From assembly GCA_017463935.1 (NCBI GenBank), contig JAFUEM010000002.1, positions 531 to 64,530 of the forward strand: a stretch of DNA of 64,000 bases, read 5' to 3'. Made by a program: the position numbers and the translations under genes. Shown here one piece after another: positions 2,861 to 25,939 of the stretch. This DNA comes from Kiritimatiellia bacterium. Its GTDB lineage: Bacteria > Verrucomicrobiota > Kiritimatiellia > RFP12 > UBA1067. The notes beneath the pieces were generated by a model. That model had not been told where the DNA came from. It did no database searches and saw only the letters and a program-made list of their open reading frames with translations. Numbering within the stretch: position 1 is the first letter of the stretch; each line of letters starts with the position of its first letter.

Positions 2861-2888
2861 CTTCAGACTTCGGACTTCCGACTTCCGG
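2861..2888. repeat. Tandem heptamer block (CTTCNGA x4)
   Basis: Reads cttcaga cttcgga cttccga cttccgg. It starts exactly where homology of the truncated GT2 copy to its intact paralogue ends. Confidence 0.85.
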
Positions 2889-3281
2889 TGACTCAAATGC
2901 GGAGGCGACATGCGCCAGCGTCTCGTCGCTTGCCAGCACATCGTCGGCGTTCAAGATTCCAACGACATCGCCCGTCGCCATCTTGATGCCCTTGTTGATG
3001 GCGTCGTACATGCCCCTGTCCGGCTCGCTGATCCAGCGGAAGGTACACCGCTTGTTTTGAACGCAGAGCCGCAGAGGCGCAGAGTCTTTTAAATGTGCCG
3101 AACACGTAGCAGGCTCAATCTTTGCCGCATACTCCTTTATTACATCGACCGTGCCATCGGACGAGCCGCCGTCAACGACGATGTACTCGACATCTACGCC
3201 CTTCTGCGAAAGGACGCTCTCAATCGCCGTCCCAATCGTCTCCGCGCTGTTGTAGCAAGCGGTTATAAGTGAAATCTTCAT
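2889..3281 (-). pseudogene. Family-2 glycosyltransferase, 5' fragment (truncated paralogue of 23443..24225)
   Basis: MKISLITACYNSAETIGTAIESVLSQKGVDVEYIVVDGGSSDGT... matches the intact copy up to ...TLAHVASAFES, and then homology stops. It carries a ~22-codon insertion containing CGCAGAG repeats. The C-terminal ~130 codons are missing. Confidence 0.8.
3062..3085. repeat. Tandem octamer block (CGCAGAGN x3)
   Basis: Reads cgcagagc cgcagagg cgcagagt, read through in frame as ..APLRLCV.. The same unit recurs at 22030-22062. Confidence 0.85.
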
Positions 3282-4133
3282 TTGCAAATCCTCTCTATCG
3301 CCTTTTTCAGCAACTCCACTCTCTCCGCATCAGTTCCGTCTCGGTACCCCTTCAGGCAAACCAACCGCCCACCGTATGAATTTCCATCTTCCCACGCCGG
3401 AGCACCGTCTGTGGTAATGACTCTCTTCCCGCGCTCGAGGGCTTCGGCGACGACACGTCCGAAGTTCTCAGAAAGCGTTGGTAGCACAAGGACTTCGCAC
3501 CATTGCCACACGCGTTCAAGTTCCTCGCCCTGTGCGTCAGAGACAATCCGCAACTCGACATTAGGTAGACCAGCTACGGCCTGTTCAAGATATTCAATGC
3601 CTTTTAAGGGATGCTTGCGCCCAAGATACAGCAAATGTACTGGATTGGAAATGTACTGGATTGGAAATGATAAAATGGGTCTGACTTGTTTTATCATTTT
3701 GCGGCAGGCAGAAAAAGCGCTTTAGATTTGTGAGTTCAATTTTCCGTGCCCCTGGTTCGTATTCTCTTATCCATTTTGCTTCTGCTTCGCATGTAGCAAG
3801 CAGCACATCAGCCCTTCGTAGCATACGATGTTCAAAGAATGATACAAGTTTCTTCTTCCACCCGTGATATGCTCTACGCACAGGGTCATAGCTACCAGCC
3901 GGACGAATGTACAGCTTTGCGCCAACCGCTTTCGCCTTCTTCGCCACCCGCCACAACACCGGCAGCCACGCGCCATGTATCATTACAACATCGACGCCAG
4001 CAACGATCTGGGCGTGGATATTCGTCAAGCTCGAATCATCACCCCGTGCAAGCTCTTCATTGACAAACTGCCGCGCAGTATTTGCCATCCCGTTCCAGGA
4101 CTGTAATCCTGCGCAAAAGTGGACAACTTTCAT
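3278..4133 (-). pseudogene. GT4 (group 1) glycosyltransferase, frameshifted paralogue of 24222..25112
   Basis: ORFs 3594..4133 and 3278..3697 together align end to end with the intact GT4: MKVVHFCAGLQSWNG vs MRILHICAGWQKWNG, LLYLGRKHPLKG vs LLYLGRRHPLKG, and C-terminus ..ERVELLKKAIERICK in both. The frame breaks inside the 16-nt tandem duplication at 3633-3664. Confidence 0.85.
3633..3664. repeat. 16-nt perfect tandem duplication (AAATGTACTGGATTGG x2)
   Basis: The two units read directly at 3633-3648 and 3649-3664. Removing one unit joins ..HFIISNPVH to LLYLGRKHPLKG.. in one frame. Confidence 0.9.
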
Positions 4134-4604
4134 TCTGCTGCCATATTGTACTTTCGACCGCTCAATCTCATCGAATCAAATTTACGCTTCACCCAACTCC
4201 CATCCAATACCGAAGCTATTCTGGTAAGATTGCGCCAAAAGTGTTCATGTCTAATGCCGAGCTTGCACATCAAGTGCGCTCTCTCCGCCCTATGTTCATC
4301 GCGATTTTTCCCTCCCATCGTCTTTGATTCATCATGTACGCGAAACCCCCATACATAACCGCCTAGCCCGACAAACCTCTCGCCCGCCTTCGCCCAGCGC
4401 GTCCAAAGATCAATGTCCATCACATACTTAAGCTCAGCGTCAAATCCGCCGCGCTTCTCCCAAAGCTCACGGCTGAAAAACGCACTCGGCCCTCCCGTCC
4501 AGACACTCAGATTCTTCCGAACCAACTACGCCACTTCGCATCCGTCCTGACATCCTTCACAATCCCTTGTTCGTCGATATAAACAGTATCTCCTACTACC
4601 CAAT

Positions 4605-4637
4605 TAATCCTGTCAATCCTGTTAATCCGGTCCAAAA
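4605..4637 (+). repeat. 32-nt tri-nonamer element, AATCCTGT family, copy A
   Basis: taatcctgtcaatcctgttaatccggtccaaaa versus consensus cAATCCTGTaAATCCTGTtAATCCTGTcAAAA has 3 mismatches and 1 extra base. It is read in frame as ..LDRINRIDRIN.. Confidence 0.85.
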
Positions 4638-4782
4638 CTTTCTTCAGCGCACCAGGCAGCAGAACATCATCGGCATTCAGCCAGAACAGCCACTCGCCCT
4701 TCGCCTTCTCAAACCCCTTGTTCAGCGCATCGCTCTGTCCGGCATCTGGCTCCCGAATCCATTCCACACCTCGCAAATCCAC

Positions 4783-4812
4783 CACTCCCAACTCCTCCAC
4801 TCCCAACTCCTC
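4783..4812. repeat. 15-nt perfect tandem duplication (CCACTCCCAACTCCT x2)
   Basis: Read directly and encodes EELGVEELGV. It sits at the N-terminal truncation point of the GT2 pseudogene. Confidence 0.85.
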
Positions 4813-4845
4813 CGTCCTGCACAATGATCTCCAAGCCCCTGCGCT

Positions 4846-5447: not shown

Positions 5448-6077
5448 CTAATCTTCATGAATTCCAACAAGCCTAATTGTCATCTCCGATGGAAGTCCGT
5501 TTGTCAGCGCATTAACATCCGCGGCCTTGTCAACAGAAAGTAATGCGTCTGCAGCATTGAATCTAAACGCATCCCTCAATGAAATGACGTCAGGAATTTC
5601 CGGGCCGAACAATGCCGACCATACATTTGTGGATCTTTCAAGACCAGATGTCGGTGCAATCGGAATCGTATTCGTGGCAATGGAATAAATCTTCGCATAC
5701 TCTTCACCCAAAGCCAATGACTGCATCAGAACAAGGCGAGCCCCAAAGAACCGCCAGTCTTTTGGCCTGTTTGCATATTCGCGCTCTATAGCCCACAGCA
5801 GATTTGTCGCTTCCACACGAGCCAAAGTGTCGTGTTCCGTTTCCGCACGCTCAAGAAGCACTGCAGACTTAAGCAATCTACACTCAACCAGTTCGTCGCC
5901 ATTGGTTGTTGCCACAATGAGCGCATTGATTTGATTCATGGAGCCCATCCTCTCCAGATAATTTGTAGATGAAAAGTCATGAAGAATGCTAGTCATCTGT
6001 TCGTGATAATTGACCTCTGCAGGCAGCGCGAACACTGCGCAACAAACAGCCAATACTGATAGGAATTTAACTTTCAT
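5448..6077 (-). CDS. Secreted hypothetical protein (accessory protein of envelope module 1)
   Basis: ATG 6077 overlaps the upstream stop (ATGA). Signal peptide MKVKFLSVLAVCCAVFALPA. It shows weak similarity (NYH.., ..ATTNGDELV vs ..AANTNDLV) to 11859..12323 and 12333..12809. Confidence 0.6.
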   Translation of the reverse strand: MKVKFLSVLAVCCAVFALPAEVNYHEQMTSILHDFSSTNYLERMGSMNQINALIVATTNGDELVECRLLKSAVLLERAETEHDTLARVEATNLLWAIEREYANRPKDWRFFGARLVLMQSLALGEEYAKIYSIATNTIPIAPTSGLERSTNVWSALFGPEIPDVISLRDAFRFNAADALLSVDKAADVNALTNGLPSEMTIRLVGIHED

Positions 6078-8599
6078 AGATTTATTTCCTCCACGATCTC
6101 CAGATATTTACTGCGTAGATTCCATCCTCGACCGTCTCTCCTGAAATATCTATACTCGATCTTTCCACCTTGCAGAAGCCGTATTGCACAGGCATTGCGA
6201 CCATTCATATTATCGTTTGCCCGCATCCATGCCGCCACGTCACCAAGTGAACTCCTATTCGCGCACCAGCTATTGATGATTTGCACACCGCCTTGGTTGT
6301 CAAGCGGCGCCTTCCAGCAATATCCGAGAAGCGCACTTGCGCCTGATAATGTTGCCCATTTTAATCCTGGGCTCGCTGAATGACTTGCCGGATTTGAATA
6401 ATGATTTCCCTTGTCGCCGATGTCCAACACCGAACATCCGGCAAAAATGACCGTCTCAACATCCCTCCAATGGTTTGTCACGTCCGCCGGCACCGCAACG
6501 CCGTAAAGCCTTCCGGTGTCATGCTCGCCATGCCCCGAATAGTAGAACACATCGGCCTGCTGCTGGCACTGCTTCTTCGTAGAACAAGACGCTCCGCACG
6601 ATGCCATAAGGCAGCCCGTCCCTGCCGCCTGAACGGTCTTGAGGTTAAACTCGCCCTCGGGTATCTGCGCGTCGGCATTGCCGCCCCATCTTCCGCGCGC
6701 CCGTCCATAAAGTCGACCCGTCGTATTCTCATCAAAGCAGTCGCTGTCTATCCTGTCACTTCCCGCGTCGGGCCCATTTGCCATGTCAACCGAGGTCTTG
6801 GCGACAATTTCATCATCGGCATTGCGAATAATGCCATTCGACTGGAGCCAGGCGGCAGCAACCGACACGCGAAAGACGTTCTGCCCTTGCGAAGTCGTAG
6901 TTGTCGCGCTTATGGGAATCGCCGCACCAGCTATATCGTGCGCTCCGTCAAAATCGACATAATACGATTTGAGCCGGATTCTCCCGCCAAAGAGCCCTAC
7001 AAAGGCGGAGACTGTCATCTCAGAACCGCCGACAGTCGCCTTCACAATGACAGACTCTCCGACTATCACAGGGTATTTCCATTCAATGGCGTTGCCAGAA
7101 GCGTCCAGTATCTCAAGACTGACGCCGCGACTTTCAATCTCGTCAATGCTCGCCTGGTCTTCATAATAGCAACGACATCTCCCCCGCCAGGAGAACGGAT
7201 ACGAATACCCTTCCCATTTTGCGGCACCCGAAAGCGAATGTTCCGAACCGCCGCAGAGACATTGCAGGGAGCAACCCCACGAGAAACCAATCTCGTTCGT
7301 CACGCACGAGCAGCAACCGCCTGCGATGTTAAGGATTCTCGGGCCGACATCTATTGGCGAAGTGTGTGCAACATAGCTGTCGGAACCGCCGCGCATCTGA
7401 ACCCGCTCAAACGGCAACTCCAACGGCAAAGAAACGGTTAATCGGTTCGCGTCGTTTGTCACGATCTCCGCGTATTCGCTCGACACGGCAGAGTAGTCAA
7501 TCGGCAAGTTGCTATCGACTGCGTATGTCGCGCCAGCGAGAAGCGGGATGTGACAGACTTGGTTTGTCCGCGCAATGATCACATGGTCGCCAAGGTCGCT
7601 CGCTCCATCGCAAGTGACGCGGATCGCCGCAACGCCGAGAAGCCCAGTTACCGAAAGATCAAGCCAGTAGTAGGCATCGGGATTCGCGTTTGGTGGCAAG
7701 CCGTTTGCCGCGTCAAAGAAATCTCCGTCGTAGCTTGCCGGGTTCGCGTCTCGCTCGTTATGGATTCCATCATCATCCCAATCGTCGGGGTTGATGCGGC
7801 GGCAGACAGTCTCGACATCGTTGGAGCGTGTCAGGAAATCGCCATTGGGGGAAAGGATGATCTGCGCGTTGACGGGGCAGTTCGTGTCGCCGCCGAGGAA
7901 GAAGCTTTCCCATGTGAGGATGCGGACCCCGTCTTCGCCATCAAGCCGCCACAGTCGGCTTTGTTCTGGAACGGCAGACATTGGAACGCCAACGGCGCAG
8001 ATTTCGTGCGCGGCATCGTGCGGAGCCGGGCGTATGCGACCATCGATGAAATACCAAAACGACGAAAACGCCTCGTCGTTTGTGCCGAGCGGGAACGACC
8101 AATTGGTAGGGACGAGCGTCCCGCTCGTCCGCAAAACGCCGAAATCAACCACATTGTTCCCGAACGACGATGCCGCGCCGTGGATGTGCCAGTTCCCGAC
8201 AAGCGCTGCGTTCGTAGGCATCGCATACGAAACCGCCGCATTAGTCGTAACGCTCTCCACTCGCCACCCGCGCATAATGTCATCAATAGTTGTCTGGACA
8301 GGATTCACAAGGCTTATAAGATTACCAATCCCCACCAATCCTGTCAATCCTGTCAAAAAACTTCCACTAGGTTGCATCTGCGGCTGATTCATATTCGGCG
8401 GCACATTGTTCGTCTTCTGCGCGGTAAGAGTTGCGACAACTGCCGCTGCGGCAAACCCCAGCAAAAGCGAGCGCGGCAACCGGCGAAGTGCCCGCAGACC
8501 AACAACAGCGGCGTATGCAGCCGCAACAGCGAACATCGCCATTACAGTGCAGTAGCCAATATATAACCAATCCACTATCACTTCATTCCCCAAATCCAC
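6074..8599 (-). CDS. Giant membrane-anchored Cys-rich protein with C-terminal CHAT/caspase-like domain (envelope module 1)
   Basis: GTG 8599 lies 8 nt after GGGAGAAG. There are two N-terminal hydrophobic segments. A roughly 370-aa region is shared with 12842..15658 (AMPTNA, HGAxSxFG, SRLW, TWExFFxGGDTNxxVNAQI, NGDFxxRSND, RRINPxDWDxDG, CDGxSxLGD). Then come a Cys cluster (GGCCSCV..CLCGG..GRCRCY) and a C-terminal FYYSGHG-(31 aa)-CSVLD..LLGYCWKAPLD. Confidence 0.7.
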   Translation of the reverse strand: MDLGNEVIVDWLYIGYCTVMAMFAVAAAYAAVVGLRALRRLPRSLLLGFAAAAVVATLTAQKTNNVPPNMNQPQMQPSGSFLTGLTGLVGIGNLISLVNPVQTTIDDIMRGWRVESVTTNAAVSYAMPTNAALVGNWHIHGAASSFGNNVVDFGVLRTSGTLVPTNWSFPLGTNDEAFSSFWYFIDGRIRPAPHDAAHEICAVGVPMSAVPEQSRLWRLDGEDGVRILTWESFFLGGDTNCPVNAQIILSPNGDFLTRSNDVETVCRRINPDDWDDDGIHNERDANPASYDGDFFDAANGLPPNANPDAYYWLDLSVTGLLGVAAIRVTCDGASDLGDHVIIARTNQVCHIPLLAGATYAVDSNLPIDYSAVSSEYAEIVTNDANRLTVSLPLELPFERVQMRGGSDSYVAHTSPIDVGPRILNIAGGCCSCVTNEIGFSWGCSLQCLCGGSEHSLSGAAKWEGYSYPFSWRGRCRCYYEDQASIDEIESRGVSLEILDASGNAIEWKYPVIVGESVIVKATVGGSEMTVSAFVGLFGGRIRLKSYYVDFDGAHDIAGAAIPISATTTTSQGQNVFRVSVAAAWLQSNGIIRNADDEIVAKTSVDMANGPDAGSDRIDSDCFDENTTGRLYGRARGRWGGNADAQIPEGEFNLKTVQAAGTGCLMASCGASCSTKKQCQQQADVFYYSGHGEHDTGRLYGVAVPADVTNHWRDVETVIFAGCSVLDIGDKGNHYSNPASHSASPGLKWATLSGASALLGYCWKAPLDNQGGVQIINSWCANRSSLGDVAAWMRANDNMNGRNACAIRLLQGGKIEYRYFRRDGRGWNLRSKYLEIVEEINL
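8297..8360. repeat. Back-to-back inverted pair of AATCCTGT-family blocks (copy B plus a degenerate partner)
   Basis: gacaggattcacaaggcttataagatt (8297-8323, reverse orientation, degenerate) is followed by caatccccaccaatcctgtcaatcctgtcaaaaaa (8326-8360). Both are read in frame as ..FLTGLTGLVGIGNLISLVNPVQ.. in the linker after the membrane anchor. Confidence 0.8.
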
Positions 8600-8772: not shown

Positions 8773-9195
8773 TCACGACTTGTCTTCCGGCTTCAATTTC
8801 TCACATGTCTCTTCCACATTCGCATGAACAAGAGTCATGCAACGCGCAAGCACAAGTTCTGCGCCATCCGCCCGGTTGTTACAGCACTCGCATAATGGCG
8901 CTATAAACACCCGCTTATCATCTGAACCCTTTATCATCACATGACATCCTTCTATCTCAGCAAGCTTTCCATTTTTTGTCTTTCCAGTGCAACCAGCAAC
9001 CGCACAATCCCCAGCCCCAGGGGCATTCTTATCGCTTAAAGTCTCCCAATGCCTTATCCATGGACCGCAATTTGGGCATTCCCTGCTTTTCTTTGCCGTT
9101 CCATTTCGATTGATCAATACAGTCCCCGCAGGAACAAATTTCTGCGAGAAAATCTTGATTATCTCGTTAGCAACCTCATCATTTTGATTTTCCAT
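8773..9195 (-). CDS. Small Cys-rich putative zinc-binding His-Me (HNH-like) finger protein
   Basis: ATG 9195 is preceded by GGAGGT. The protein is 140 aa with 10 Cys. The pattern CPNC..CAVAGC..GCHV..(D)KRVFIAPLCECCNNR fits a zinc-stabilised beta-beta-alpha nuclease finger. There is no closer family assignment by eye. Confidence 0.45.
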   Translation of the reverse strand: MENQNDEVANEIIKIFSQKFVPAGTVLINRNGTAKKSRECPNCGPWIRHWETLSDKNAPGAGDCAVAGCTGKTKNGKLAEIEGCHVMIKGSDDKRVFIAPLCECCNNRADGAELVLARCMTLVHANVEETCEKLKPEDKS

Positions 9196-9438
9196 TTGGC
9201 ACCTCCATTTCTTGGATTATTCTTATGTTGTGACCGCACTCGCAGTCAGCGGGAAAGTTAGAAAAGAATTCCTACAAGTTTCTACAAAATCGCAGGAAAT
9301 TTGACAAGACAAGAATTGGTCTTTTATGCTTGCAATGGCAATAGTATCCTATTTGCGCCGACAATATCAATGCAACCTTGCGCTCTTTCTCAAACTCGCG
9401 CCACACGCCTGACATGAAGATTCGGTAGGTCATACAAG

Positions 9439-11787
9439 TTATGCGTGGTGGACAATTTTAAGAGCAAGGTTCACATAAGTTTTCAATTCTATTGGATCTG
9501 GAACATCTGCAGAAACGCCTGTAACCCGATGATGGAAACGCTGAGTATATGCGTTAACATCTTCCAAGTCTGTTACAAGACATTTACAAGGCGCCATTAC
9601 ATCATGTATTTGGGCGTTTTTGATACAGCTTATCATATCACCAAGCCAGACTTTCTCTCCAAAATTCAATGGATACTTATAGTGAAGATATGTTTCCAAT
9701 AGCGGCCTAATCCGTCCAACGACTTCTTTTAGTTTATCATGATAAAGATCTGGATTGTCCGCATAACCTGCTAGTTCCATATAATCCGTTTCATACGATT
9801 TTGATGGCAACTGCGGAAGTTCGCCATGCTTCAACTCTATTGCAGAACCCATTTGAGGAATCTCAAATGCCCGAATCTCATTACGTGCAATACCCTTGTC
9901 GGACATAAACATCTGAACAAATTCAATATTATGTGAGAGCAGGAAGAATTGGGAACACGCGTTTGCTTTCCGCTTTAGCAGACTAATTGTCTGCGATTGT
10001 CTACTACGGTCTTGATCGTGATATGGATCATCAATAACTACAATTGCGGAAGCAAGATTAGAATCCGTTTCCAACTTGGCCAAAAAGAACGCCAAGGCCA
10101 AGGCGCTACAGTCTCCACCACTTAAACTATTTGAAAGAGACAGCCGCGATGGGTCATCAGCCGCCCCAGATGAACAGTCAACTTGTGCTGACTGTCCATT
10201 AGCTGAGATTTTTATAGACAATTGCCCCGACGCCACACCTCCTCTCAAATTGACACCATCGTTTCCAACAGTAAAATTGACTCCAAATACGCCAAGAATT
10301 TCATTAATCTTATCTCCAAATGAATCAAATATCGACTTAGACTCTTCTTTTAGAGCATCATTAGCTTGCGTCTTCGCATCTTGAGCGGCTTGCTTGGCTA
10401 ATAGCGCACTATCATATTCCTGATAAGCGCTAACAACACTTTTCTCATAACGTTTCTTCTGTAGTTCTAACAGACTTAACTCTTTAGTAGAATCGTCAAT
10501 GTTGATGGTAGCAATTGACCGTTGGAACTCCTTTATTTGCGCATTGGCTACATCAATAGCATCGTTATATGCTGTAATACACGATTGCATACTGCCAAGT
10601 GAATCTAATGCAACAATCTCGCTTTCAAGCAGGGGAACTGCAATGGTCAGATTACTTTGCTTCCGCGCTATCGCCGCCAATGCCACACGAAGAACCCGTG
10701 AATAGATCCCTTTAATGGCTTCAACATCAAACGATGGCAATGCAATCGACAAGCCACAGGCATCTTTCCACCATGAAACGTCTCCAGAATTTTGTTTTGC
10801 AACATTAACTAATTCTATTTGTGCCTTATCCCCCATACAACTTTGAAAAGCAGATCTAACACCACTTCGACGATTTTCTTGTTGTTTCAACGCCCCAGAA
10901 AAGAATACTTTATATGTTGTAAATAAATCAACATGAGACATAACCTGCCCACAGTATGGGCATAGTGTCCCAGTTTGAGCCTCATATCCTTGTTTTATCC
11001 AGTCAACAGACAACTTTTTAGGATCTGAACATAGAGCAAGGTGTTCTTTGATTTTTCCTTCCGCAGTCAACGCCGCGTCATCAAGCGTTGTCGACAAAAC
11101 ACTTTCCAAATCACTTTTTGCAATTGACGGCATTGCTATCTTTTGCATCAACCCATGTTTACGAATCTGATCGGCCTTGGACTTTTTATTTTTATCAGCA
11201 GTAATACGCGCCTTGAGTCCCAATATCTTAACATCAACATCATCAACTTTCTCAAGTGTTCTGAAGGTATCTATCTGCTGACCCGCCGGGATCAGAGCTG
11301 AAAGCACAGATGCACATCGCGAAACAGCCTCTGTTGCTCTAGTAAGTTCATCTCCTGCTTTTTGAACAGCCCTATTAAGTTCAATTGCTTTTGGCCCTAA
11401 TGCCAGACTATACACATTTCGCTTCTGCTCAACACCAATTTGGCCACCGACAATCACATTATCCTTGACAAATCGTTGGTCAAAAACAAGAATGTGCGAT
11501 CCATCAAGTGGACAATTCCATTGTCCATTATTAAATACCAGATGCTGATTATTATCGGAAAGCAAGTCAATAAGCGGTTCCGCCTCTCCGCCAATCCTCT
11601 TACGTCCAATAACATACGATGAATTTTGTGTATCCAACGATCTGAGAACGTCGCACAGTGTTGTCTTTCCGCAAGCATTTAGAGCATATATGACATTCAC
11701 CTTGCTAAACTCACCATCATTACCGCTTGATGACCTAAGCTTCTCGAATCGACCAACGTTTTCTAGTTTAATGATTCTTTTTATCAT
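9439..11787 (-). CDS. RloC/AAA_13-like ABC-type ATPase with coiled-coil zinc hook (candidate anticodon nuclease or defence ATPase)
   Basis: ATG 11787 is preceded by AAGGAG. Walker A is ALNACGKTT, with signature LSGGD and Walker B IVVIDDP in the C-terminal third. A long helical insertion contains CPYC (aa 276-279, nt 10951-10962). The C-terminal RPLLETYLHYKYP..QRFHH resembles the PrrC/RloC-type tail. Confidence 0.6.
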   Translation of the reverse strand: MIKRIIKLENVGRFEKLRSSSGNDGEFSKVNVIYALNACGKTTLCDVLRSLDTQNSSYVIGRKRIGGEAEPLIDLLSDNNQHLVFNNGQWNCPLDGSHILVFDQRFVKDNVIVGGQIGVEQKRNVYSLALGPKAIELNRAVQKAGDELTRATEAVSRCASVLSALIPAGQQIDTFRTLEKVDDVDVKILGLKARITADKNKKSKADQIRKHGLMQKIAMPSIAKSDLESVLSTTLDDAALTAEGKIKEHLALCSDPKKLSVDWIKQGYEAQTGTLCPYCGQVMSHVDLFTTYKVFFSGALKQQENRRSGVRSAFQSCMGDKAQIELVNVAKQNSGDVSWWKDACGLSIALPSFDVEAIKGIYSRVLRVALAAIARKQSNLTIAVPLLESEIVALDSLGSMQSCITAYNDAIDVANAQIKEFQRSIATINIDDSTKELSLLELQKKRYEKSVVSAYQEYDSALLAKQAAQDAKTQANDALKEESKSIFDSFGDKINEILGVFGVNFTVGNDGVNLRGGVASGQLSIKISANGQSAQVDCSSGAADDPSRLSLSNSLSGGDCSALALAFFLAKLETDSNLASAIVVIDDPYHDQDRSRQSQTISLLKRKANACSQFFLLSHNIEFVQMFMSDKGIARNEIRAFEIPQMGSAIELKHGELPQLPSKSYETDYMELAGYADNPDLYHDKLKEVVGRIRPLLETYLHYKYPLNFGEKVWLGDMISCIKNAQIHDVMAPCKCLVTDLEDVNAYTQRFHHRVTGVSADVPDPIELKTYVNLALKIVHHA

Positions 11788-11830: not shown

Positions 11831-11861
11831 ATCTACACGTTCTACATGTTCTACACGGCTA
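11831..11861 (-). repeat. Tri-nonamer element, GTGTAGAAC family, solo copy
   Basis: The reverse complement tagccgtgtagaacatgtagaacgtgtagat shares TAGCCGTGTAGAAC.. with the arm at 23411-23442. It abuts and overlaps the stop codon of 11859..12323 and lies 44 nt upstream of the ATPase start. Confidence 0.85.
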
Positions 11862-12323
11862 TTTCTGGAGCGGCGTCCAGAGGCCGGTTTCCGAGATCTG
11901 TTCAAGGATGAAGTCGCAGTCCAAGGGCTTGTGCGAGATCTGGGACTTCGCCCTTTGCTCCTGAAGGACGGCGTCGGTCTGTTGCGGCAGAAATTCGTCG
12001 AGGTAGTACACCCACCCGGACCGAAGGTTGGAGCACAGATTCGTGAGCGACGGCTCGCTTACGGAGTCCAATGCGCAGACAAGGCGCTGTATCGAGTTTG
12101 ACATAGCCTGGTAGTCCGAAAACAATATGTCGTACGAAACCATGAGGTGCGAGGCGACGAGGTCGTTCGTGTTCGCCGCCAGACGCTGCTGCGCCAGCTC
12201 GTAGACGTTCGTCCAGTTGCCCTGATACCAGTCGTTCGTAACAGCGTGATAGTTGTCCGCCGACGGGGCCGCATGCGCGAACGCCGAGAGCGAGAATGCA
12301 ATTGCCGCGATTGTATTCTTCAT
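11859..12323 (-). CDS. Secreted hypothetical protein (tandem paralogue 2, envelope module 2)
   Basis: ATG 12323 follows GAGGGA. Signal peptide MKNTIAAIAFSLSAFAHA. It shares YHAVTNDWYxGNxxNVxELxxxRLAANTNDLV with 12333..12809. Confidence 0.7.
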   Translation of the reverse strand: MKNTIAAIAFSLSAFAHAAPSADNYHAVTNDWYQGNWTNVYELAQQRLAANTNDLVASHLMVSYDILFSDYQAMSNSIQRLVCALDSVSEPSLTNLCSNLRSGWVYYLDEFLPQQTDAVLQEQRAKSQISHKPLDCDFILEQISETGLWTPLQK

Positions 12324-20069: not shown

Positions 20070-20733
20070 CGCGCTTAGGGAGACTTGGGAATACTCGATT
20101 CATAAGTTTGCTTTTAGGGAACAAAATTACCCATGCGGTAAGAAAGATTAGCATTGCATCAGTCCAGAGCCCAATGTGCTTCTGATACCACATTTCCAAT
20201 GCGCCCTTGTACGGCGAGACGATCTTGGCGTAAGCCTCGTCGATGTCCATGCCCTTCTTCGCGCACTCCGACAATAACGTTTCCTCGTCGCGGAAGACGA
20301 CCGAGCCGATACCGGTCAGCCCCGGCTTCACGTTGTAGATGTTCGCCTTCACTTCGTCCGAGTAGGGTGCGAAGGTCTTGTCCACCAGCGGACGCGGGCC
20401 GACAATCGACATGTCGCCCAGGAAGATGTTGAAGAGCTGCGGCAGCTCGTTGATCTTCGTTTTGCGGAGGAAGCGACCGAACGGCAGCACGCGCGGATCG
20501 CCATGCGTCGTATGAAGTCCGCCAGCCATGTTCGGGCTGTTGCGCAACATCGTCGCGAACTTCAGAATCTTGAAATGCTTGTTCTTGTAGCCGATACGAT
20601 CCTGCCCGTAGAATATATCATGCTCGCCAGTGCATTTGAGAATTATCATGACAGGCACCAGCAATGGCGACAGCATGATGATTGCGAGACCTGAGAGGAG
20701 GATATCAAAGAAACGTTTGAGGGGTTTATACAT
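20056..20733 (-). CDS. Polyprenyl-phosphate sugar-phosphate transferase (PglC/WbaP-type initiating enzyme)
   Basis: MYKPLKRFFDILLSGLAIIMLSPLL.., KILKFATM, GDPRVLPFGRFLRKTKINELPQLFN and SIVGPRP are bacterial sugar transferase family hallmarks. Confidence 0.85.
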   Translation of the reverse strand: MYKPLKRFFDILLSGLAIIMLSPLLVPVMIILKCTGEHDIFYGQDRIGYKNKHFKILKFATMLRNSPNMAGGLHTTHGDPRVLPFGRFLRKTKINELPQLFNIFLGDMSIVGPRPLVDKTFAPYSDEVKANIYNVKPGLTGIGSVVFRDEETLLSECAKKGMDIDEAYAKIVSPYKGALEMWYQKHIGLWTDAMLIFLTAWVILFPKSKLMNRVFPSLPKRDGIY

Positions 20734-20746
20734 AGAGAGATCTTTC

Positions 20747-20778
20747 TTTTGACAGGATTAACAAGATTGACAGGATTA
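20747..20778 (-). repeat. 32-nt tri-nonamer element, AATCCTGT family, copy E (intergenic)
   Basis: ttttgacaggattaacaagattgacaggatta matches the arm at 24650-24681 at 29 of 32 positions. It ends 14 nt upstream of the sugar transferase start codon. Confidence 0.85.
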
Positions 20779-20784
20779 TGTTTT

Positions 20785-20865
20785 AACCACTAAATACACG
20801 AAATACACGAAAGATAAAGAAATGTTCAGATAAGGTATTTCGTGTATTTAGTGTATTTCGTGGTT
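20785..20865. repeat. 28-bp-stem inverted repeat of (N)AAATACAC nonamers with a 25-nt loop
   Basis: The left arm aaccactaaatacacgaaatacacgaaa (20785-20812) pairs with the right arm tttcgtgtatttagtgtatttcgtggtt (20838-20865) at 26 of 28 positions. The right arm encodes the last five codons (NHEIH) and the TAA of the epimerase gene. Confidence 0.85.
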
Positions 20866-21732
20866 TAGAAAACTCTTTAATGTTTCGCGCAGACCGTCTT
20901 CGGCGCGGACGGGCATCGCCGCCCAACCAAGGTGCGCCTTCAGCGCTGCATTGTCCACAAAGCTGTCCTCGGTCAGTTTGCCGAGGCGCTCCGTGTTGAG
21001 CGGCAGATGGAGGACGTCGCCCACTCTGGCGGCCAGCCGCATCAGTCCCTTCGGCAGTCGCCAGAGTCGCGGCTTGCGCCCACAGACCTCCGCCATCAAC
21101 TCTATAAGGCGGTTTGTCGAAAGCATCTCGTCATCGGCAATCGGGTAGACTCCATTTTTTCCGCGTTCGCACAGAGCCTCGACAGCGGCGCAGATGTTGC
21201 CGATGCTCGTGAACGAGCGTCTGTTCGCGAACGCCGCCAAAGGCCAGGGGAAGCCGCGCCGCGCAATGCCCCAGAGAAGATTCAAATTGCCCTTGTTCCC
21301 TGGACCGTGAATCATCGCCGGACGCAGCACGATGGCGCGCCCGGCCAGAAATTTCTCCGCCGCCAGCTTCGACTGTCCGTAGGGTGTATCGGCATCCGCC
21401 GCCTTGCTGCTGGAGAAGTAGATGAAGCGCGACACCTTGCCGTTAGCGGCATTGAATATCTTCTCCGTAAGGCCTACATTGATGTCGAAGTAGCTCTGCG
21501 GATCGCTCACGTTCTTGAGGTCATGCGCCTTGCCCGCAAGGTGAACGACAGCATCCATGCCAGCCCAGTCGATATTGCTGAGCTCGTCCCACGTATGAAA
21601 CGCCGCATACGGCACATCGTCGCACTTCGCCTTTGGAATGTCGAGTGCAACGCACTCGTGCCCCCTGCCGACAAGGTAGCGGCAGAGATTCGTGCCTACA
21701 AATCCATAGGCTCCAGAGATAAGGATACGCAT
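20848..21732 (-). CDS. NAD-dependent sugar epimerase/dehydratase family protein
   Basis: Internal ATG 21732 gives MRILISGAYGFVGTNL (Rossmann GxxGxxG). It belongs to the SDR extended family. Confidence 0.8.
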   Translation of the reverse strand: MRILISGAYGFVGTNLCRYLVGRGHECVALDIPKAKCDDVPYAAFHTWDELSNIDWAGMDAVVHLAGKAHDLKNVSDPQSYFDINVGLTEKIFNAANGKVSRFIYFSSSKAADADTPYGQSKLAAEKFLAGRAIVLRPAMIHGPGNKGNLNLLWGIARRGFPWPLAAFANRRSFTSIGNICAAVEALCERGKNGVYPIADDEMLSTNRLIELMAEVCGRKPRLWRLPKGLMRLAARVGDVLHLPLNTERLGKLTEDSFVDNAALKAHLGWAAMPVRAEDGLRETLKSFLNHEIH

Positions 21733-21736
21733 ATTA

Positions 21737-22978
21737 TTACATCCTCGAATCAAGCGACTTGCCCTTCTCGATGTGCTGGAAGTTGGGGAGGTATTCTTTC
21801 AGAACCTCTATGACATCCGCCTTCTCTGCGCCGGGCTTCCTGAACACAGCGCGCAGGTTTGCGAAGATCGCCTCTACCTCCTCTACGGGGCGCTTCTTGG
21901 AATTTTTGACCGCGCCAAGATTGATGAAGGTCGTCTCGTCTTTGATGTCCGTATCCGTATAGAACTCCTCAAACGTCTTCTCGCCACTCGTGTCGCTGCC
22001 GAAGAACTCGCACGGGTAGCCATTTTTAACGCAGAGGCGCAGAGACGCAGAGTTCGCAGAGATTTCCCTCATGGATTCTTTAGCTTCAATGGAACTGGAG
22101 CAAACCTTGCACCCGAACCCCATGTCATTCAGCATATCCTTCACCACAGCATCGAACGGGATCATGTCCTTCTCTGGATCAAGCTTTGGATAGACGATAT
22201 CGCCACTCTCAGCCATGACGCTTGCAAACAGGCACAGCTCACCCGACTCTGTCGGGCTCACGAAGAACCTGCGAATCCCAAGCGGACAACTCAGTGGCTG
22301 CTTCTTCTGTATGCGGTTTAGCCAGCCGATGGGAAGCGATCCGTTGGAGAACGCGACATTGGCAAACCGCGCCGTCTTGATCGGAAGCCTATCGGAGTAC
22401 GCCATGATAGTCTCCTCCATCAACTTTTTCGTCGCGCCCATAACGTTTACAGGATTCGCCGCCTTATCCGTCGAGACGCAGAAGAACGCCTCAGGCGGAT
22501 TCTCCAACAGCAAATCCAACAACTTCTTCGCCATAAACACATTTGTCTCGCACATCGCCTCGATGGAGAAGACGTCACGCTCCGCCCGCACGTGCTTCCT
22601 TGCCGCGAAGTTCGCGACAATATCGAACGGCCCCTTTGCCTTGAAGAATCGGTCAAACAAGTCGCTACCAAGGTCGATAGGTTCGGTAATATACTCTTCA
22701 GGGACATTGTAGTCGCCTGCCCTCAGTTCACGCGTCAGTTCCGTCAGTGAGTTTTCATCAATGTCGACGACGAACATCGCCGCCGGCTTGAATCCGCGCA
22801 ACGCCGCCTTGATGTAGTTGCTACCGATTGTCCCAGCGCCGCCGATGACAAGCATCCGCTTGCCGTCGATTCGCCAGTGCATCTCGTCACGGCACTTCTC
22901 AAAGTCAGCCGCCAAAAGCGACTCCGCCCGCTTGGTCATGTACTTGCGGACAAATGATTCAATGTCAAAGTCGATCAT
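21737..22978 (-). CDS. CapD/PglF-like nucleotide-sugar dehydratase (polysaccharide biosynthesis protein)
   Basis: ..MLVIGGAGTIGSNYIK.., ..FFCVSTDKAANPVNVMGATKKLME.. It contains an in-frame CGCAGAG block (..SASLRLCVKNG..). Confidence 0.75.
   Translation of the reverse strand: MIDFDIESFVRKYMTKRAESLLAADFEKCRDEMHWRIDGKRMLVIGGAGTIGSNYIKAALRGFKPAAMFVVDIDENSLTELTRELRAGDYNVPEEYITEPIDLGSDLFDRFFKAKGPFDIVANFAARKHVRAERDVFSIEAMCETNVFMAKKLLDLLLENPPEAFFCVSTDKAANPVNVMGATKKLMEETIMAYSDRLPIKTARFANVAFSNGSLPIGWLNRIQKKQPLSCPLGIRRFFVSPTESGELCLFASVMAESGDIVYPKLDPEKDMIPFDAVVKDMLNDMGFGCKVCSSSIEAKESMREISANSASLRLCVKNGYPCEFFGSDTSGEKTFEEFYTDTDIKDETTFINLGAVKNSKKRPVEEVEAIFANLRAVFRKPGAEKADVIEVLKEYLPNFQHIEKGKSLDSRM
22030..22062. 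repeat. Tandem block (CGCAGAGN x4)
   Basis: Reads cgcagagg cgcagaga cgcagagtt cgcagaga, in the same orientation and with the same T-rich flanks as 3062-3085. Confidence 0.85.
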
Positions 22979-22991
22979 AGAAGGACCTTTC

Positions 22992-23442
22992 TTAACCGTG
23001 TAGAACGTGTAGAAACGTGTAGATTTATGCCGTGATGGTACGACGCTCGAATTTGTAAGAACCGAAATTTATCAGAAGTCCAACTGGTGAATGCGTTATC
23101 TTTAGATAGTTGAGAATTTGTGCGAAATGCTCAGGCGCGAGTGTCTTGACCGCTTTCAGTTCAACTATCAATCTATCATTAACAAGCATATCCACGAAGT
23201 AGTCTCCAACACAATATTCATCTTCATCAAACACTTTTAATGGCTGTTGCCGTTCGACCTTGAACCCAGCCTTTACAAGTCTGTGTTCAAGCGCAGACTC
23301 ATACACTTTTTCAAGCAAGCCGTTACCAAAGTATTCGTGTACGCCATATGCGATTTGCCCAACCTTAGAAGCAAGTTCCCTCAACTCATCAGCGCAATCC
23401 ATCTCTCTCCTTCTACACGATCTGCACGTTCTACACGGCTAA
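22992..23442 (-). mobile_element. 451-bp cassette: GxxExxY gene bounded by 32-nt terminal inverted repeats of GTGTAGAAC nonamers (candidate miniature mobile element)
   Basis: The left arm is ttaaccgtgtagaacgtgtagaaacgtgtaga (22992-23023). The reverse complement of the right arm (23411-23442) is ttagccgtgtagaacgtgcagatcgtgtagaa. The outer 22 nt match at 20 positions and the inner nonamer realigns with a 1-nt indel. The cassette fills the gap between the GT2 stop (23443) and the CapD-like start (22978). Confidence 0.55.
23025..23402 (-). CDS. GxxExxY protein (PD-(D/E)XK nuclease-like superfamily)
   Basis: The protein is 125 aa. ..VHEYFGNGLLEKVYESALEHRL.. contains the eponymous G-L-L-E-K-V-Y motif. 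..DMLVNDRLIVELKAV.. is a D..E-x-K-like core. Confidence 0.8.
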   Translation of the reverse strand: MDCADELRELASKVGQIAYGVHEYFGNGLLEKVYESALEHRLVKAGFKVERQQPLKVFDEDEYCVGDYFVDMLVNDRLIVELKAVKTLAPEHFAQILNYLKITHSPVGLLINFGSYKFERRTITA

Positions 23443-24225
23443 TCACTTTATCCCCAGCCTCGGTAGGATGAACTCAAACACCTTGAAGAAATATTTAGGC
23501 AGCAGCATCGGGAAGCAACAGAAATACCCATTCTCCAAGTTGCCGCGAACAATCTCCCTATTGAGAGTCTTGAAACTTTTCCAACCACGCGTCGACTTGC
23601 CGCCCATCCGCATCCTAACCAAGCATTCGTTCAAGTAGCGCGTATTGAGCTTGGCCATACGTAGGTATCGTATAAGCAACTCATAATCAGCCGCGATATC
23701 ATAGCCCAGCTTGTACAACCCATACTGATCAAACAATTCTCGCCTGATATACACACTCGGATGCGGCGGCATCTTCCCCCATTGCAGCATCCACGGCTTC
23801 CAATGCTTCGCAGAATAATAGCGGCTCGTTGTCTGCAAATCATCCTTCACAAATCGAATATCGGCGTAGACACAATCAACTCTCTCACCCACTCCTCCAC
23901 TACTAAAAGCCTCCACGACATGTGCAAGCGTATTCTCCGACTCAAACATGTCGTCCGCATTAAGAATCCCTACAATATCGCCCGTTGCCATCTTGATTCC
24001 CTTGTTGATGGCGTCGTACATGCCCGCGTCAGACTCGCTTATCCAGCGCATAAGCCCATTGAAACACGGCTCGTATTCTTTGAAGATTGCAATGCTGTCG
24101 TCCGTGGACGCCCCATCCACAACGATGTATTCGACATCTACACCCTTTTGTGAAAGGACGCTCTCAATCGCAGTCCGTATTGTTCCCGCACTGTTGTAAC
24201 ACGCTGTTATAAGCGAAATCTTCAT
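23443..24225 (-). CDS. Family-2 glycosyltransferase
   Basis: ATG 24225 forms an ATGA overlap with the GT4 stop; the track start at 24231 is TTG. MKISLITACYNSAGTIRTAIESVLSQKGVDVEYIVVDGASTDDS.. with an NADD (DxD-type) motif. Confidence 0.85.
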   Translation of the reverse strand: MKISLITACYNSAGTIRTAIESVLSQKGVDVEYIVVDGASTDDSIAIFKEYEPCFNGLMRWISESDAGMYDAINKGIKMATGDIVGILNADDMFESENTLAHVVEAFSSGGVGERVDCVYADIRFVKDDLQTTSRYYSAKHWKPWMLQWGKMPPHPSVYIRRELFDQYGLYKLGYDIAADYELLIRYLRMAKLNTRYLNECLVRMRMGGKSTRGWKSFKTLNREIVRGNLENGYFCCFPMLLPKYFFKVFEFILPRLGIK

Positions 24226-25112
24226 TTGCAAATCCTCTCTATCGCCTTTTTCAGCAACTCCACTCTCTCCTCATCCGTCCCGTCCCGATACCCCTTCAGA
24301 TAAATCAACCGTCCGCCATAGCCCGAATACAATCCTGTAAATCCTGTTAATCCTGTCAAAACCTCTCCCCATGCTGGTGCGCCGTCGGTGGTGATGACGC
24401 GCCTACCGCGCTCGAGAGCTTCGGCTATGACAAGCCCGAAATTGTCGGAGAGGGTCGGGAGAACGAGCACGTCGCACCAGTCCCAAATTTTTTCGAGCTC
24501 TTCGCCAAAGGCATTGGAGACAACTTTCAGTTGCGGGGTAACAGGTAACAGGGAACTGGGAACAGATGAGAGTTGTTGTACGGCGGCTTCGAGATAGTTG
24601 AGGCCCTTGAGCGGATGGCGGCGGCCAAGGTAGAGGAGGTGGAGGTCTTTTTTGACAGGATTAACAGGATTTACAGGATTGAGATTGGCGAGATTGAAGA
24701 ACCGCTTGATGTCGGTGACTTCAACAGGCGGGCAGCGGCGACCAAGATAGGCGCGAATCCAGTCGGCCTCGGCTTCGCATGTGGCAACAAGCACCTTAGC
24801 ACGGCGGAGGCAAAAGCGCTCGATGGGGCCGACAAGAGTCTTCTTCCAACCATGATAGGCCCGCCGGATTGGATCATAACACGCCTCTGGCATCCAACGG
24901 ACGTTCCGACCCCACAATGCCGCCCACCAGAGGCAGGGCAACCATCCACAATGAATCCATATCTCGTCAGCGGATCGAAGTTGGCGAATCGATGCCCACG
25001 TGCGGAATGAGACGGCGTGCCCCTGCTGCACCTGCTCACCCATAATGAGCCGAGCAATATTAGCCGCGCCATTCCACTTTTGCCAACCAGCGCAAATGTG
25101 AAGAATTCTCAT
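24222..25112 (-). CDS. GT4 (group 1) glycosyltransferase, intact, carrying an internal perfect inverted repeat
   Basis: MRILHICAGW.. The C-terminal half has ..VLVLPTLSDNFGLVIAEALERGRRVITT.. (EX7E-type). The ORF is open through both 32-nt arms and the heptamer block. Confidence 0.85.
   Translation of the reverse strand: MRILHICAGWQKWNGAANIARLIMGEQVQQGHAVSFRTWASIRQLRSADEIWIHCGWLPCLWWAALWGRNVRWMPEACYDPIRRAYHGWKKTLVGPIERFCLRRAKVLVATCEAEADWIRAYLGRRCPPVEVTDIKRFFNLANLNPVNPVNPVKKDLHLLYLGRRHPLKGLNYLEAAVQQLSSVPSSLLPVTPQLKVVSNAFGEELEKIWDWCDVLVLPTLSDNFGLVIAEALERGRRVITTDGAPAWGEVLTGLTGFTGLYSGYGGRLIYLKGYRDGTDEERVELLKKAIERICK
24330..24361 (+). repeat. 32-nt tri-nonamer element, AATCCTGT family, copy C (left arm of perfect IR)
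   Basis: caatcctgtaaatcctgttaatcctgtcaaaa, read in frame as ..LTGLTGFTGL.. Confidence 0.95.
24537..24564. repeat. Tandem heptamer block (GGTAACA GGTAACA GGGAACT GGGAACA)
   Basis: Read directly. It encodes part of ..SSVPSSLLPVTPQ.., an insertion relative to ..GLPNVE.. in the paralogue at 3278..4133. Confidence 0.8.
24650..24681 (-). repeat. 32-nt tri-nonamer element, AATCCTGT family, copy D (right arm of perfect IR)
   Basis: ttttgacaggattaacaggatttacaggattg is the exact reverse complement of 24330-24361 (32 of 32). It is read in frame as ..NPVNPVNPVK.. Confidence 0.95.
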
Positions 25113-25939
25113 TTAACACCTTTAACCACGATACTCACCAAATGCGCACATGACAAAATCGCCGCTGCTATGCCATGATAGCGGTAGCGGATAAGCCAAA
25201 GGTCATGAAGATTCCAGTAACCTGGTTGCCAAAGAAGCTTGATGCGCTGACGAAGTGATTTGCCGCGCATCTTTTCACCAAAATCATTGTGGCAGACGCC
25301 TATATACTTGGATGAACAGTAGAATGGTATATTCGCAGCCTTTAGACGTTCAGCATAATCGTAGTCTGCACGAGCATGAGAGTAATCGCCTGAAATCATG
25401 CCGACTTTCTCATATACTGCCTTTGGAACAAGAACAAAATTTCCATTGAACCAACCGTCTGCCAATTGCGGAGTACCATTTGGCACAATCAGTTCGTCCC
25501 TGTGGTTCTTGGCACCATACGAGCACTTAGTCTCTATAATATCCTCAAAACAAGCACCTATGAGGACAAGAGTTCCGTTTGCAGGTAATCGTTGGTTGTT
25601 AGTTGTTAGTAATGCATAGTCGGCGAGGATGTTTGCAATGGCATCCGACTTGAGCGCGACATCATCGTTCAACCACAAATAGAAGTCATATTCACCGCTC
25701 TTTGTTGCCGCCTCCCATGCAAGGCGCATTCCCTTGGCCCAATAGAGTCGTCCCGTCCCATTTATGACATGCACATTCGGAAAGTGTTCACGGGCCTTCA
25801 ACCCTGTCCCGTCTGGGGATGCATCATCGACAAGAAACACATCATGCTCAATTCCGTCCGCCGCCGCTGCCAATCCCCCCAATGCGCGAAGCGTTGTTTC
25901 CGCACGGTTATAGCATGTCATTAGAACCGCAATTTTCAT
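25109..25939 (-). CDS. Family-2 glycosyltransferase (rhamnosyltransferase-like)
   Basis: Internal ATG 25939 forms an ATGA overlap with the DUF218 stop. MKIAVLMTCYNRAETT..FLVDDASPDGT..WLNDDV.. Confidence 0.8.
   Translation of the reverse strand: MKIAVLMTCYNRAETTLRALGGLAAAADGIEHDVFLVDDASPDGTGLKAREHFPNVHVINGTGRLYWAKGMRLAWEAATKSGEYDFYLWLNDDVALKSDAIANILADYALLTTNNQRLPANGTLVLIGACFEDIIETKCSYGAKNHRDELIVPNGTPQLADGWFNGNFVLVPKAVYEKVGMISGDYSHARADYDYAERLKAANIPFYCSSKYIGVCHNDFGEKMRGKSLRQRIKLLWQPGYWNLHDLWLIRYRYHGIAAAILSCAHLVSIVVKGVK
25591..25611. repeat. Tandem heptamer block (GTTGGTT GTTAGTT GTTAGTA)
   Basis: Read directly and in frame (..LLTTNNQ..). The units resemble those at 41131-41151. Confidence 0.7.

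Follow-up and report, generated by a model that had tools for sequence, protein, structure and literature searches.

The 23S rRNA intervening sequence (IVS) of Coxiella is a 428-nt insert that has been described as a selfish element (PMC4990558). The inverted repeats at its ends pair into a 28-bp stem with one mismatch and one bulge, three tandem heptamers precede its S23p open reading frame (ORF), and the insert is excised by RNase III; according to an old proposal, it was formerly mobile (PMC4990558). A comparable unit of 451 bp was analysed in a 64,000-nt stretch of a Kiritimatiellia bacterium metagenome contig (JAFUEM010000002.1; the whole stretch is hereafter called the window). At positions 22992-23442, on the minus strand, a gene of the GxxExxY family was enclosed by two mutually inverted repeats, here called arms, between two host genes of sugar pathways. 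On balance, the unit is probably an insertion-type selfish cassette with clade-specific arms, the gene-bearing copy of which would supply a trans-acting factor. The unit belongs to a discrete cassette class, its arms are cognate and constrained, gene-less relatives are abundant, and orthologous sites are occupied in some relatives and empty in others.

The cassette resembled the IVS of Coxiella, Leptospira, Salmonella and others in size (about 430-450 nt), in inverted repeats of ~28-32 nt at both ends, with a single mismatch and a single bulge, in short tandem repeats by the start of an ORF of ~120 aa of unknown role, and in the long stem that the terminal repeats form around the small ORF, which for the cassette is a predicted stem. 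Moreover, both sit inside a transcript without destroying it, and S23p cassettes with tandem-8-mer arms were found at the orthologous junction of the cassette itself. In contrast, the GxxExxY cassette was located in an mRNA operon between protein genes, whereas the IVS lies in rRNA helix 25 or 45; its ORF encoded a PD-(D/E)XK nuclease (PF13366) rather than the four-helix bundle of S23p/PF05635, and its arms formed part of large, dispersed families that include hairpin and solo copies. By analogy, the unit also looks like a 23S rRNA IVS relocated into an mRNA operon. An earlier reading of this DNA, made from the letters and their ORFs (the sequence-only reading), had regarded the arrangement as undescribed. 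No description of an arm-gene-arm arrangement was found in the literature searched (coverage was incomplete, with most subscription journals outside it), and to this extent the statement stood; the 23S rRNA IVS is nevertheless a close precedent (PMC4990558). In the parts of the literature that were accessible, GxxExxY was mentioned in papers whose titles concern other subjects, in one of them as a domain label only.

Three further systems share parts of this design. In the system of REP-associated tyrosine transposases and REP doublets forming hairpins (RAYT/REPIN; REP, repetitive extragenic palindrome), the enzyme gene lies between inverted short repeats, gene-less singlets and doublets are abundant, and the location is mostly intergenic. 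The cassettes were similar in that the gene was flanked by an inverted repeat, the repeat was far commoner without the gene (here across metagenome contigs), its sequence covaried with the enzyme clade, and its location was mostly intergenic. They differed in the enzyme fold, which was PD-(D/E)XK and not HUH/Y1, and in repeats composed of three direct units of ~9 nt instead of a GTAG-headed palindrome. Furthermore, GxxExxY seems to be multi-copy with several paralogue-arm pairs per genome (one contig, L019, bore two), and cassette-type arms also occurred in frame within coding genes. Membership of the REP/RAYT class was rejected, as the RAYT-like genes found bore other repeats.

Insertion sequences (IS), miniature inverted-repeat transposable elements (MITE) and transposons with multi-site ends (Tn7, Mu and IS21) resembled the cassette in their terminal inverted repeats and in several direct, binding-site-sized units per end. 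Further likenesses to IS/MITE were short derivatives that lack the gene, insertions nested in one another and orthologous sites polymorphic for presence/absence, and the TnsA protein of Tn7 is a PD-(D/E)XK nuclease. The cassette differed in having no recognised transposase family and no clear target-site duplication, and its copies were anciently diverged. At 125 aa, its protein is, to our knowledge, much smaller than all known transposases. PD-(D/E)XK homing endonucleases such as I-Ssp6803I are small enzymes of restriction-endonuclease fold in harmless selfish inserts, a property that the cassette shares; unlike them, it had no intron or intein, it carried flanking arms, which homing genes lack, and it occupied many unrelated contexts rather than one cognate target. 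Assignment as an integron gene cassette was rejected, since mutual inverted copies were present on both sides and no attC-type imperfect palindrome was found; the neighbours were also opposed to it, as these genes were for glycosyltransferases and epimerases and none encoded an integrase.

Architecture and recurrence of the cassette

The coordinates of the cassette and its surroundings are given in Table 1. The first base of the 5' arm directly adjoined the TGA stop codon (23443-23445) of the upstream family-2 glycosyltransferase (GT2) gene. The 3' arm began 1 nt past the TAA of the GxxExxY gene and ended 13 nt ahead of the ATG of the downstream CapD-like gene, and the native leader of the latter, GAAAGGTCCTTCT-ATG, was left intact by the cassette. 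Each arm was ~32 nt long and consisted of a TTA(A/G)CC head with three units at a spacing of 9-10 nt. The arms were complementary at 20 of the outer 22 positions (91%) and over ~31 nt overall with one bulge. The sequence-only reading had described a gene between inverted arms with this 20-of-22 match, added to an operon with both neighbours untouched; each of these statements was borne out, and its distances were correct within 1 nt. All genes in the cassette neighbourhood were on the minus strand, so that the cassette was co-oriented with both host genes. A scan limited to sigma-70-type sites gave no promoter of this type in 22700-23700, and no intrinsic terminator was found there; given the co-orientation, the cassette is presumably read within the operon transcript. 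A purine-rich AGAG/GGAG block was present in homologous cassettes at the position equivalent to the spacer before the GxxExxY start. The GC content was 43% in the cassette, 48-54% in its neighbours and about 68% at the window ends. No rRNA or other Rfam family was detected in 20500-25500; the matches that appeared at permissive E-values were all sub-threshold, and most of them placed plant miRNA models on the 20783-20867 hairpin.

The cassette protein matched TIGR04256 (GxxExxY) with 123.2 bits (cut-off 35; 6.6e-36) and PF13366 (PDDEXK_3) with 120.4 bits (cut-off 22; 6.7e-35). Both scores were above the curated cut-offs and confirmed the GxxExxY, PD-(D/E)XK-like identity that had been proposed for it. 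E31, D71, E81-x-K83 and Q95...Y99 were invariant across the alignments of two clades and represent the RecB/Cas4-type motif set. The AlphaFold2 model of the protein had a predicted local distance difference test score (pLDDT) of 92.4. The best Foldseek matches of the model were Cas4 SSO0001 (E 2e-4, template modelling score 0.55-0.59), MGME1, the AdnAB nuclease domain and lambda exonuclease, followed by tRNA-splicing endonucleases and Hjc. The features of a RecB/Cas4-like PD-(D/E)XK protein, namely the alpha-beta-beta-beta-alpha-beta core, D...(D/E)xK and QxxxY, were all present, and the protein appears to be catalytically active as a nuclease. The ratio of nonsynonymous to synonymous substitution rates (dN/dS) was about 0.03, with dS saturated. 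A sequence search of the PDB gave no GxxExxY relative, and only the fold search was informative. No PADLOC family matched the protein at E <= 0.001, no relative was found in viral contigs, and Pfam and NCBIfam gave no transposase match in this protein, the only ORF of the cassette. The GxxExxY/PDDEXK_3 family comprised 11,611 clusters (50% identity) at E <= 0.001 in a representative library. In a 2012 survey of the PD-(D/E)XK superfamily, the function of PF13366 was given as 'Unknown' (PMC3424549).

The arm-gene-arm design was recurrent. A family-wide scan with the GxxExxY alignment against one genome per species returned 47 loci, with 44 usable ORFs, from Kiritimatiellia, Pontiella, Lentisphaeria, Victivallales, Akkermansia and other Verrucomicrobiota, Planctomycetota, Desulfobacteraceae, Cloacimonadota and Bacteroidales. 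The 100 nt on the 5' side of each ORF were aligned to the reverse complement of the 3' flank with a threshold of >=29; 162 other ORFs from the GxxExxY loci served as controls, and shuffled flanks reached 24 at their 99th percentile. A flanking inverted repeat at this threshold was present at 35/44 GxxExxY ORFs versus 3/162 control ORFs. Hence, the survey of paralogues that the sequence-only reading had proposed came out in its favour. The armed ORFs spanned Kiritimatiellia, Pontiella, Lentisphaeria, Akkermansia, Opitutaceae, Planctomycetota, Desulfobacteraceae and Bacteroidales. Over all fetched loci, strong flanking inverted repeats were found at 53 ORFs, 35 of which were GxxExxY and two of which were PF05635 genes with tandem-8-mer arms; three of the four S23p-like ORFs in the data set had such arms.

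Proteins 80-94% identical to the window GxxExxY were common in gut and rumen metagenomes. The contexts of three such homologues were inspected, and every copy had both arms in unchanged register. These window-clade cassettes were located between an ADH/GFO oxidoreductase and a heparinase II/III-like gene, between PseB/CapD-like and FdtA-like genes, and between a duplicated 5' fragment of FdtA and FdtA. At least eight different gene contexts hosted GxxExxY cassettes, fabD|fabG included, and the design was also present in cultured species. In Bacteroides finegoldii, the gene was located between radA and a gene for an FAD-dependent protein, and in Sphingomonas parapaucimobilis it was located between fabD and fabG. 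As fabD and fabG are usually adjacent, the GxxExxY gene of the latter species is an insert. Neighbours of the homologous cassettes were co-oriented in nearly all gene calls, apart from two short ORFs in L008 and L013, both of them partial and located at a contig end. Many of these cassettes had a second 3' arm 14 nt beyond the first, and several assemblies broke exactly inside an arm.

Compound arrangements were observed at some of these loci. In the cassettes at L036:2400-3180 and L030:185-735, the 5' arm was present as a tandem pair and the 3' arm as two or three tandem copies; in view of the differing spacers, the cassette seems nested inside older empty elements. At L045:2483-3424 and L054:2504-3441 (a metagenome chromosome and an Akkermansia metagenome-assembled genome, respectively), a GxxExxY cassette was located immediately upstream of yraN/UPF0102, itself a conserved small PD-(D/E)XK protein, and another arm followed yraN/UPF0102.

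The arm sequence varied with the protein clade. The autocorrelation of the arms peaked at lags 9 and 10 (0.50 and 0.39, respectively), compared with about 0.27 elsewhere. The repeated unit was CGTGTAGAA, GGTGGAGAG, CGCAAAGAA/CGCAGAGAA, CACAGAGAA, ACAGAATT or ATTAGTGAT according to clade, and the head was usually TT(A/C)(A/G)CC. The window clade always had CGTGTAGAA arms across three or more contexts. A second GxxExxY clade, 44% identical, was represented in L019 with GACAGGATT arms on a contig shared with a CGTGTAGAA cassette. Relatives of this second clade (70-98% identical) also had GACAGGATT arms in every case, including one between arginase and saccharopine dehydrogenase in a polyamine operon. 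Across 38 cassettes, arm similarity and protein identity were correlated (Spearman 0.64; 0/2000 permutations as high); a comparison of arm sequences with paralogue phylogeny had been proposed in the sequence-only reading. Among cassettes of the window clade (clade A) in different contexts, identity was 33-53% at codon position 3, 84-96% in the 5' arms and 70-96% in the 3' arms. The low dN/dS and the conserved arms, set against the diverged third positions, indicate selection on both the protein and the arm sequence. The saturated synonymous sites indicate that the compared copies are old and that their spread was ancient. At the second cassette of L019 (L019:1-1831), ~250 nt of the 5' part of an FdtA-like gene were duplicated on either side, and both FdtA-like copies broke at one shared codon, which was the arm start.

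The junction upstream of ATGATCGACT, immediately ahead of the leader of the CapD-like gene, was compared in relatives. Look-ups with the exact cassette and CapD-like proteins returned only contigs of the same strain and hence no empty site. The CapD-like orthologues (86-96% identical) retained the start ATGAT(C/A/T)GACT and a purine-rich leader. In the window, the junction held the GxxExxY cassette, and in L215 (orthologue 95% identical) it held no element. In L214 (96%), a truncated CGTGTAGAA arm directly followed the orthologous GT2 stop and was followed by unrelated small genes. In L216-L219 (91%), a 120-aa ORF of PF05635, the '23S rRNA IVS protein', was located between arms of GGGAGTGA units, and in L220/L221 (86%) the element had no ORF and consisted of a TTAACGCAGAG arm, a loop of ~75 nt and an inverted arm. 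One site thus shows presence/absence as well as replacement polymorphism, and the empty sites that had been anticipated in close relatives were found in L215, with other occupants in L214 and L216-L221. Beside the S23p cassette of L216-L219, a gene for a 1034-aa protein with a reverse-transcriptase domain and an Abi_2 gene were located among the sugar genes; defence-type genes seem to accumulate in such polysaccharide loci.

Gene-less arms and competing readings

A two-unit 17-mer of the cassette arm, with <=3 mismatches, had six matches in the window versus 0.06 expected, and no shuffle reached six. Apart from one weak match at 55960, these matches fell on the cassette arms and on the solo arm (11832-11857). 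The sequence-only reading had claimed a solo arm at a stop codon 11.5 kb away; the arm at 11831-11861 indeed overlapped and provided the TAG stop of ORF 11859-12323. A scan of metagenome contigs with exact arm patterns returned at least 120 arm-bearing stretches. Among the stretches listed, a GxxExxY gene stood beside the arm in 2/120, and about six of the 120 had matched two units by chance, within coding sequence rich in GC. The remaining listed stretches were solo arms, short-loop hairpins, tandem multi-family mosaics and concentric nests. The solo arms in metagenomes had a sharply conserved left edge, tttTTAGCCGTGTAGAAC..., and in the nests, arm pairs of different families enclosed one another around a central palindrome. 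The independent occurrence of arms had been named as a point that would count against a cassette; gene-less copies did dominate the listed stretches, but they were patterned as solo and hairpin copies (MITE/REPIN-like) and were not random. The excess of gene-less arms over gene-bearing copies makes the system look like a RAYT/REPIN or IS/MITE pair.

The nests at L086:3068-3369, L152:3153-3497, L081:12983-13277 and L092:2969-3131 comprised two to three families around a central GC-rich palindrome, GGGGCTCCGCCCC..., which is suggestive of successive insertions into hairpin loops or of copying by fold-back. Three arm-carrying metagenome contigs (L096:1621-2709, L193 and L093) contained ORFs of 351-369 aa. 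The L096 ORF had weak matches to Y1_Tnp (IS200-like) and to a C-terminal helix-turn-helix, the L193 ORF was near-identical, and the L093 ORF was similar in appearance. Those of L096 and L193 were flanked by palindromes of their own with a common GGTCTGACC core, and the repeat of L093 was different. There may be a distinct RAYT/REP-like system alongside the arm families.

For a selfish cassette, the following course of events is proposed. The cassette would have landed past the GT2 stop and ahead of the ribosome-binding site that serves the CapD-like gene. Its arms would act as sequence-specific recognition sites, three per arm, each set particular to one GxxExxY clade. The GxxExxY protein may bind and cut or recombine its own arms, and this action may move or copy the elements, the gene-bearing copy providing the trans-acting factor for solo arms and for hairpins that lack an ORF. 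Within the transcript, the two arms are predicted to pair into a ~30-bp stem as an RNase III-type substrate, and putative RNase III processing of this stem would let the host operon tolerate the insert. Action of the nuclease on its own arms is favoured by the coexistence of arm families, each of which would need a specificity factor, by clade-specific paralogues, by an intact catalytic site, and by a three-site arm layout that recalls transposon ends. The selfish mini-element suggested by the sequence-only reading was thus upheld in part, as a discrete recurrent cassette at a variably occupied junction; nuclease-driven mobility was the weaker part, with old copies and with S23p cassettes of like design.

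Several observations weigh against a selfish cassette driven by its nuclease. No unambiguous target-site duplication was found for the cassette. The ends of the unit read TTAG...TTAA, in which TTAA is palindromic, forms part of the inverted repeat and is missing from some arm families. No recent movement was documented, the synonymous sites being saturated between contexts. No flanking repeat was detected at 9/44 GxxExxY genes by the alignment used, the arms of L044, L069 and L071 faced outward (...GGTTAA [ORF] TTAACC...), and those of L046 were direct repeats. Ordinary host epimerase genes were sometimes bracketed by arms. Moreover, genes for the non-nuclease S23p (PF05635) occupied cassettes built in the same way, and the architecture therefore does not require a nuclease. 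The covariation of arm and protein could merely reflect co-inheritance of whole cassettes, and the related sequences were mostly from metagenome assemblies.

The main rival holds that the arms form an independent repeat system of REP, bacterial interspersed mosaic element (BIME) or MITE type that depends on another factor, with GxxExxY and S23p as passengers that do not act on the arms and may exploit them for expression, RNA stability or hitch-hiking. The rarity of GxxExxY genes among the listed arm-bearing stretches, the S23p cassettes, the bracketed epimerase genes and the outward-facing or direct arms at some GxxExxY genes all fit such a system. Multi-family mosaics in tandem and concentric nests are BIME-like, and RAYT-like Y1 transposase genes were present on arm-carrying metagenome contigs. 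However, those RAYT-like genes were flanked by other palindromes (GGGTCTGAC type) and not by cassette arms, and each GxxExxY clade kept its own arm family across unrelated contexts and even within one contig. The window carried at least four coexisting arm families, with tandem arrays suggesting a few more; each would need a specificity factor, for which the multi-paralogue GxxExxY is the obvious candidate. Furthermore, the three S23p arm families shared none with the GxxExxY arm families, although the sample was small. A passenger role was considered unlikely.

A role confined to RNA is less likely and was judged improbable. Here, the arms would form an RNase III site in the operon transcript, the cassette would be a fixed, host-used module that is no longer mobile, and cleavage would release a stable monocistronic GxxExxY mRNA or uncouple the neighbouring cistrons. 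The predicted RNA fold paired the two cassette arms in a ~30-bp stem in both the minimum free energy and the centroid structures (z = -2.5), and the Coxiella IVS, with its stem, tandem heptamers and RNase III excision, is a parallel case (PMC4990558). The anciently diverged copies and the co-orientation of the cassette with its neighbours, with no promoter or terminator of its own found, agree with this explanation. In contrast, G:U-compatible mismatches of the arms numbered 35 for the sense strand and 32 for the antisense strand, beside 54 transversions; there was no sense-strand wobble bias, and pairing alone therefore fails to explain the arm constraint. The primary sequence and the 9-nt periodicity were conserved far beyond the needs of pairing, most arms in the listed stretches were solo and unable to pair, and the orthologous junction was variably occupied.

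A chance or local palindrome of no wider meaning, such as an autoregulatory operator of the kind frequent at small genes, could not have been excluded from one locus alone, but it was ruled out and has a negligible probability in view of the window matches, the family-wide comparison with control ORFs, the identical arms at homologues in other contexts and the arm-bearing metagenome stretches.

The cassette class is widespread and apparently undescribed. A broader and more tentative proposal, which we consider possible rather than probable, is that GxxExxY proteins are the sequence-specific nucleases of an unrecognised phylum-spanning repeat system with paralogue-specific arms, with S23p cassettes and rRNA IVS as sister branches. 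If so, each paralogue would recognise its own three-unit arm and drive the copying or recombination of cassettes, hairpins and solo arms, which would insert themselves at junctions between genes, into hairpin loops and, in some cases, into genes in frame. PF13366 and PF05635, both large families of unknown function, would gain a role, and the origin of rRNA intervening sequences would be explained. The conserved arm-gene-arm setting of most sampled members, in which the clade-specific arms are held as tightly as the protein itself, provides a concrete, testable substrate for GxxExxY/PDDEXK_3. The design also ties these genes to rRNA intervening sequences, whose origin has been debated from about 1990 onwards, and it hints at a third bacterial gene-plus-repeat partnership beside IS/MITE and RAYT/REPIN. 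Such elements would also account for peculiarities of Kiritimatiellia, Verrucomicrobiota and Bacteroidota genomes, namely small genes wedged in conserved operons, e.g., fabD-fabG, NPVNPVNPV or LTGLTG peptides inside enzymes, and assembly breaks in polysaccharide loci.

Further arm copies and neighbouring features in the window

Table 1. Positions of the cassette parts, host genes and intergenic arm copies in the window.
Feature	Position	Strand	Sequence or remark
Family-2 glycosyltransferase (GT2), upstream host gene	23443-24231	minus	Pfam and NCBIfam matches
Upstream (5') arm	23411-23442	minus	TTAGCCGTGTAGAACGTGCAGATCGTGTAGAA; TTAGCC head and units CGTGTAGAA / CGTGCAGAT / CGTGTAGAA
Spacer, 8 nt	23403-23410	minus	GGAGAGAG; Shine-Dalgarno-like, the cassette's own, between 5' arm and ATG
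GxxExxY ORF, 125 aa	23025-23402	minus	Pfam and NCBIfam matches
Downstream (3') arm, inverted copy of the 5' arm	22992-23023	minus	TCTACACGTTTCTACACGTTCTACACGGTTAA
CapD/FlaA1-like NDP-sugar dehydratase or epimerase, downstream host gene	21737-22978	minus	Pfam and NCBIfam matches
ORF-less hairpin, sister arm family	20783-20867	minus	AACCACGAAATACACTAAATACACGAAATA, 23-nt loop, inverted copy
Solo arm, GACAGGATT family, 3'-arm orientation	20749-20777	minus	ATAATCCTGTCAATCTTGTTAATCCTGTCAAAAG; just upstream of the Bac_transf start
Solo arm, cassette-arm family, 5'-arm orientation	11831-11861	minus	TAGCCGTGTAGAACATGTAGAACGTGTAGA

The arm copies in the window comprised an ORF-less hairpin, solo arms and copies in frame within ORFs. 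The hairpin was located between the epimerase and Bac_transf genes. The solo arm of the cassette-arm family preceded a 41%-GC gene at 9439-11787; a possible degenerate arm at ~9268-9290 was considered as its partner and rejected, as its orientation was the same. Directly past this solo arm, a 41%-GC block (8773-11787) encoded a 782-aa AAA_13 ATPase, which matched the PADLOC candidate defence family PDC-S06 (8e-60), and then a Cys-rich ORF of 140 aa, for which no family match was obtained. The block looks like an inserted defence module.

Two arms of the GACAGGATT family (24331-24357 and 24654-24680) were in frame in a GT4/GT1 glycosyltransferase ORF at 24222-25112 on the minus strand, where they encoded the peptides NPVNPVNPVKK and LTGLTGFTGL. 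In a degraded paralogue at 3278-3697, a single NPV replaced the former and GNS replaced the latter; hence, with the full arm peptides absent from the paralogue, the arms in ORF 24222-25112 look like tolerated in-frame insertions. A GACAGGATT hairpin pair at 8296-8356 was in frame in an 841-aa ORF (6074-8599) and encoded LTGLTGL...LVNPV, and a three-unit GACAGGATT arm at 4607-4632, in frame in ORF 4507-4824, encoded DRINRIDRIN. Arrays of three to four ACGCAGAG units were located at 22029-22061, within the CapD-like ORF, and at 3061-3084; they were coding and gave the peptide ...SASLRLCV.... The same ACGCAGAG unit also builds the ORF-less hairpin at the orthologous junction of L220/L221.

The GT4-GT2 gene pair of 23443-25112 had a second copy at 2733-4133, which was truncated and in part frame-shifted, where it marked the border between the low-GC variable region and the backbone of ~67% GC. 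Within this degraded copy, a 16-nt tandem duplication was present at 3633-3669.

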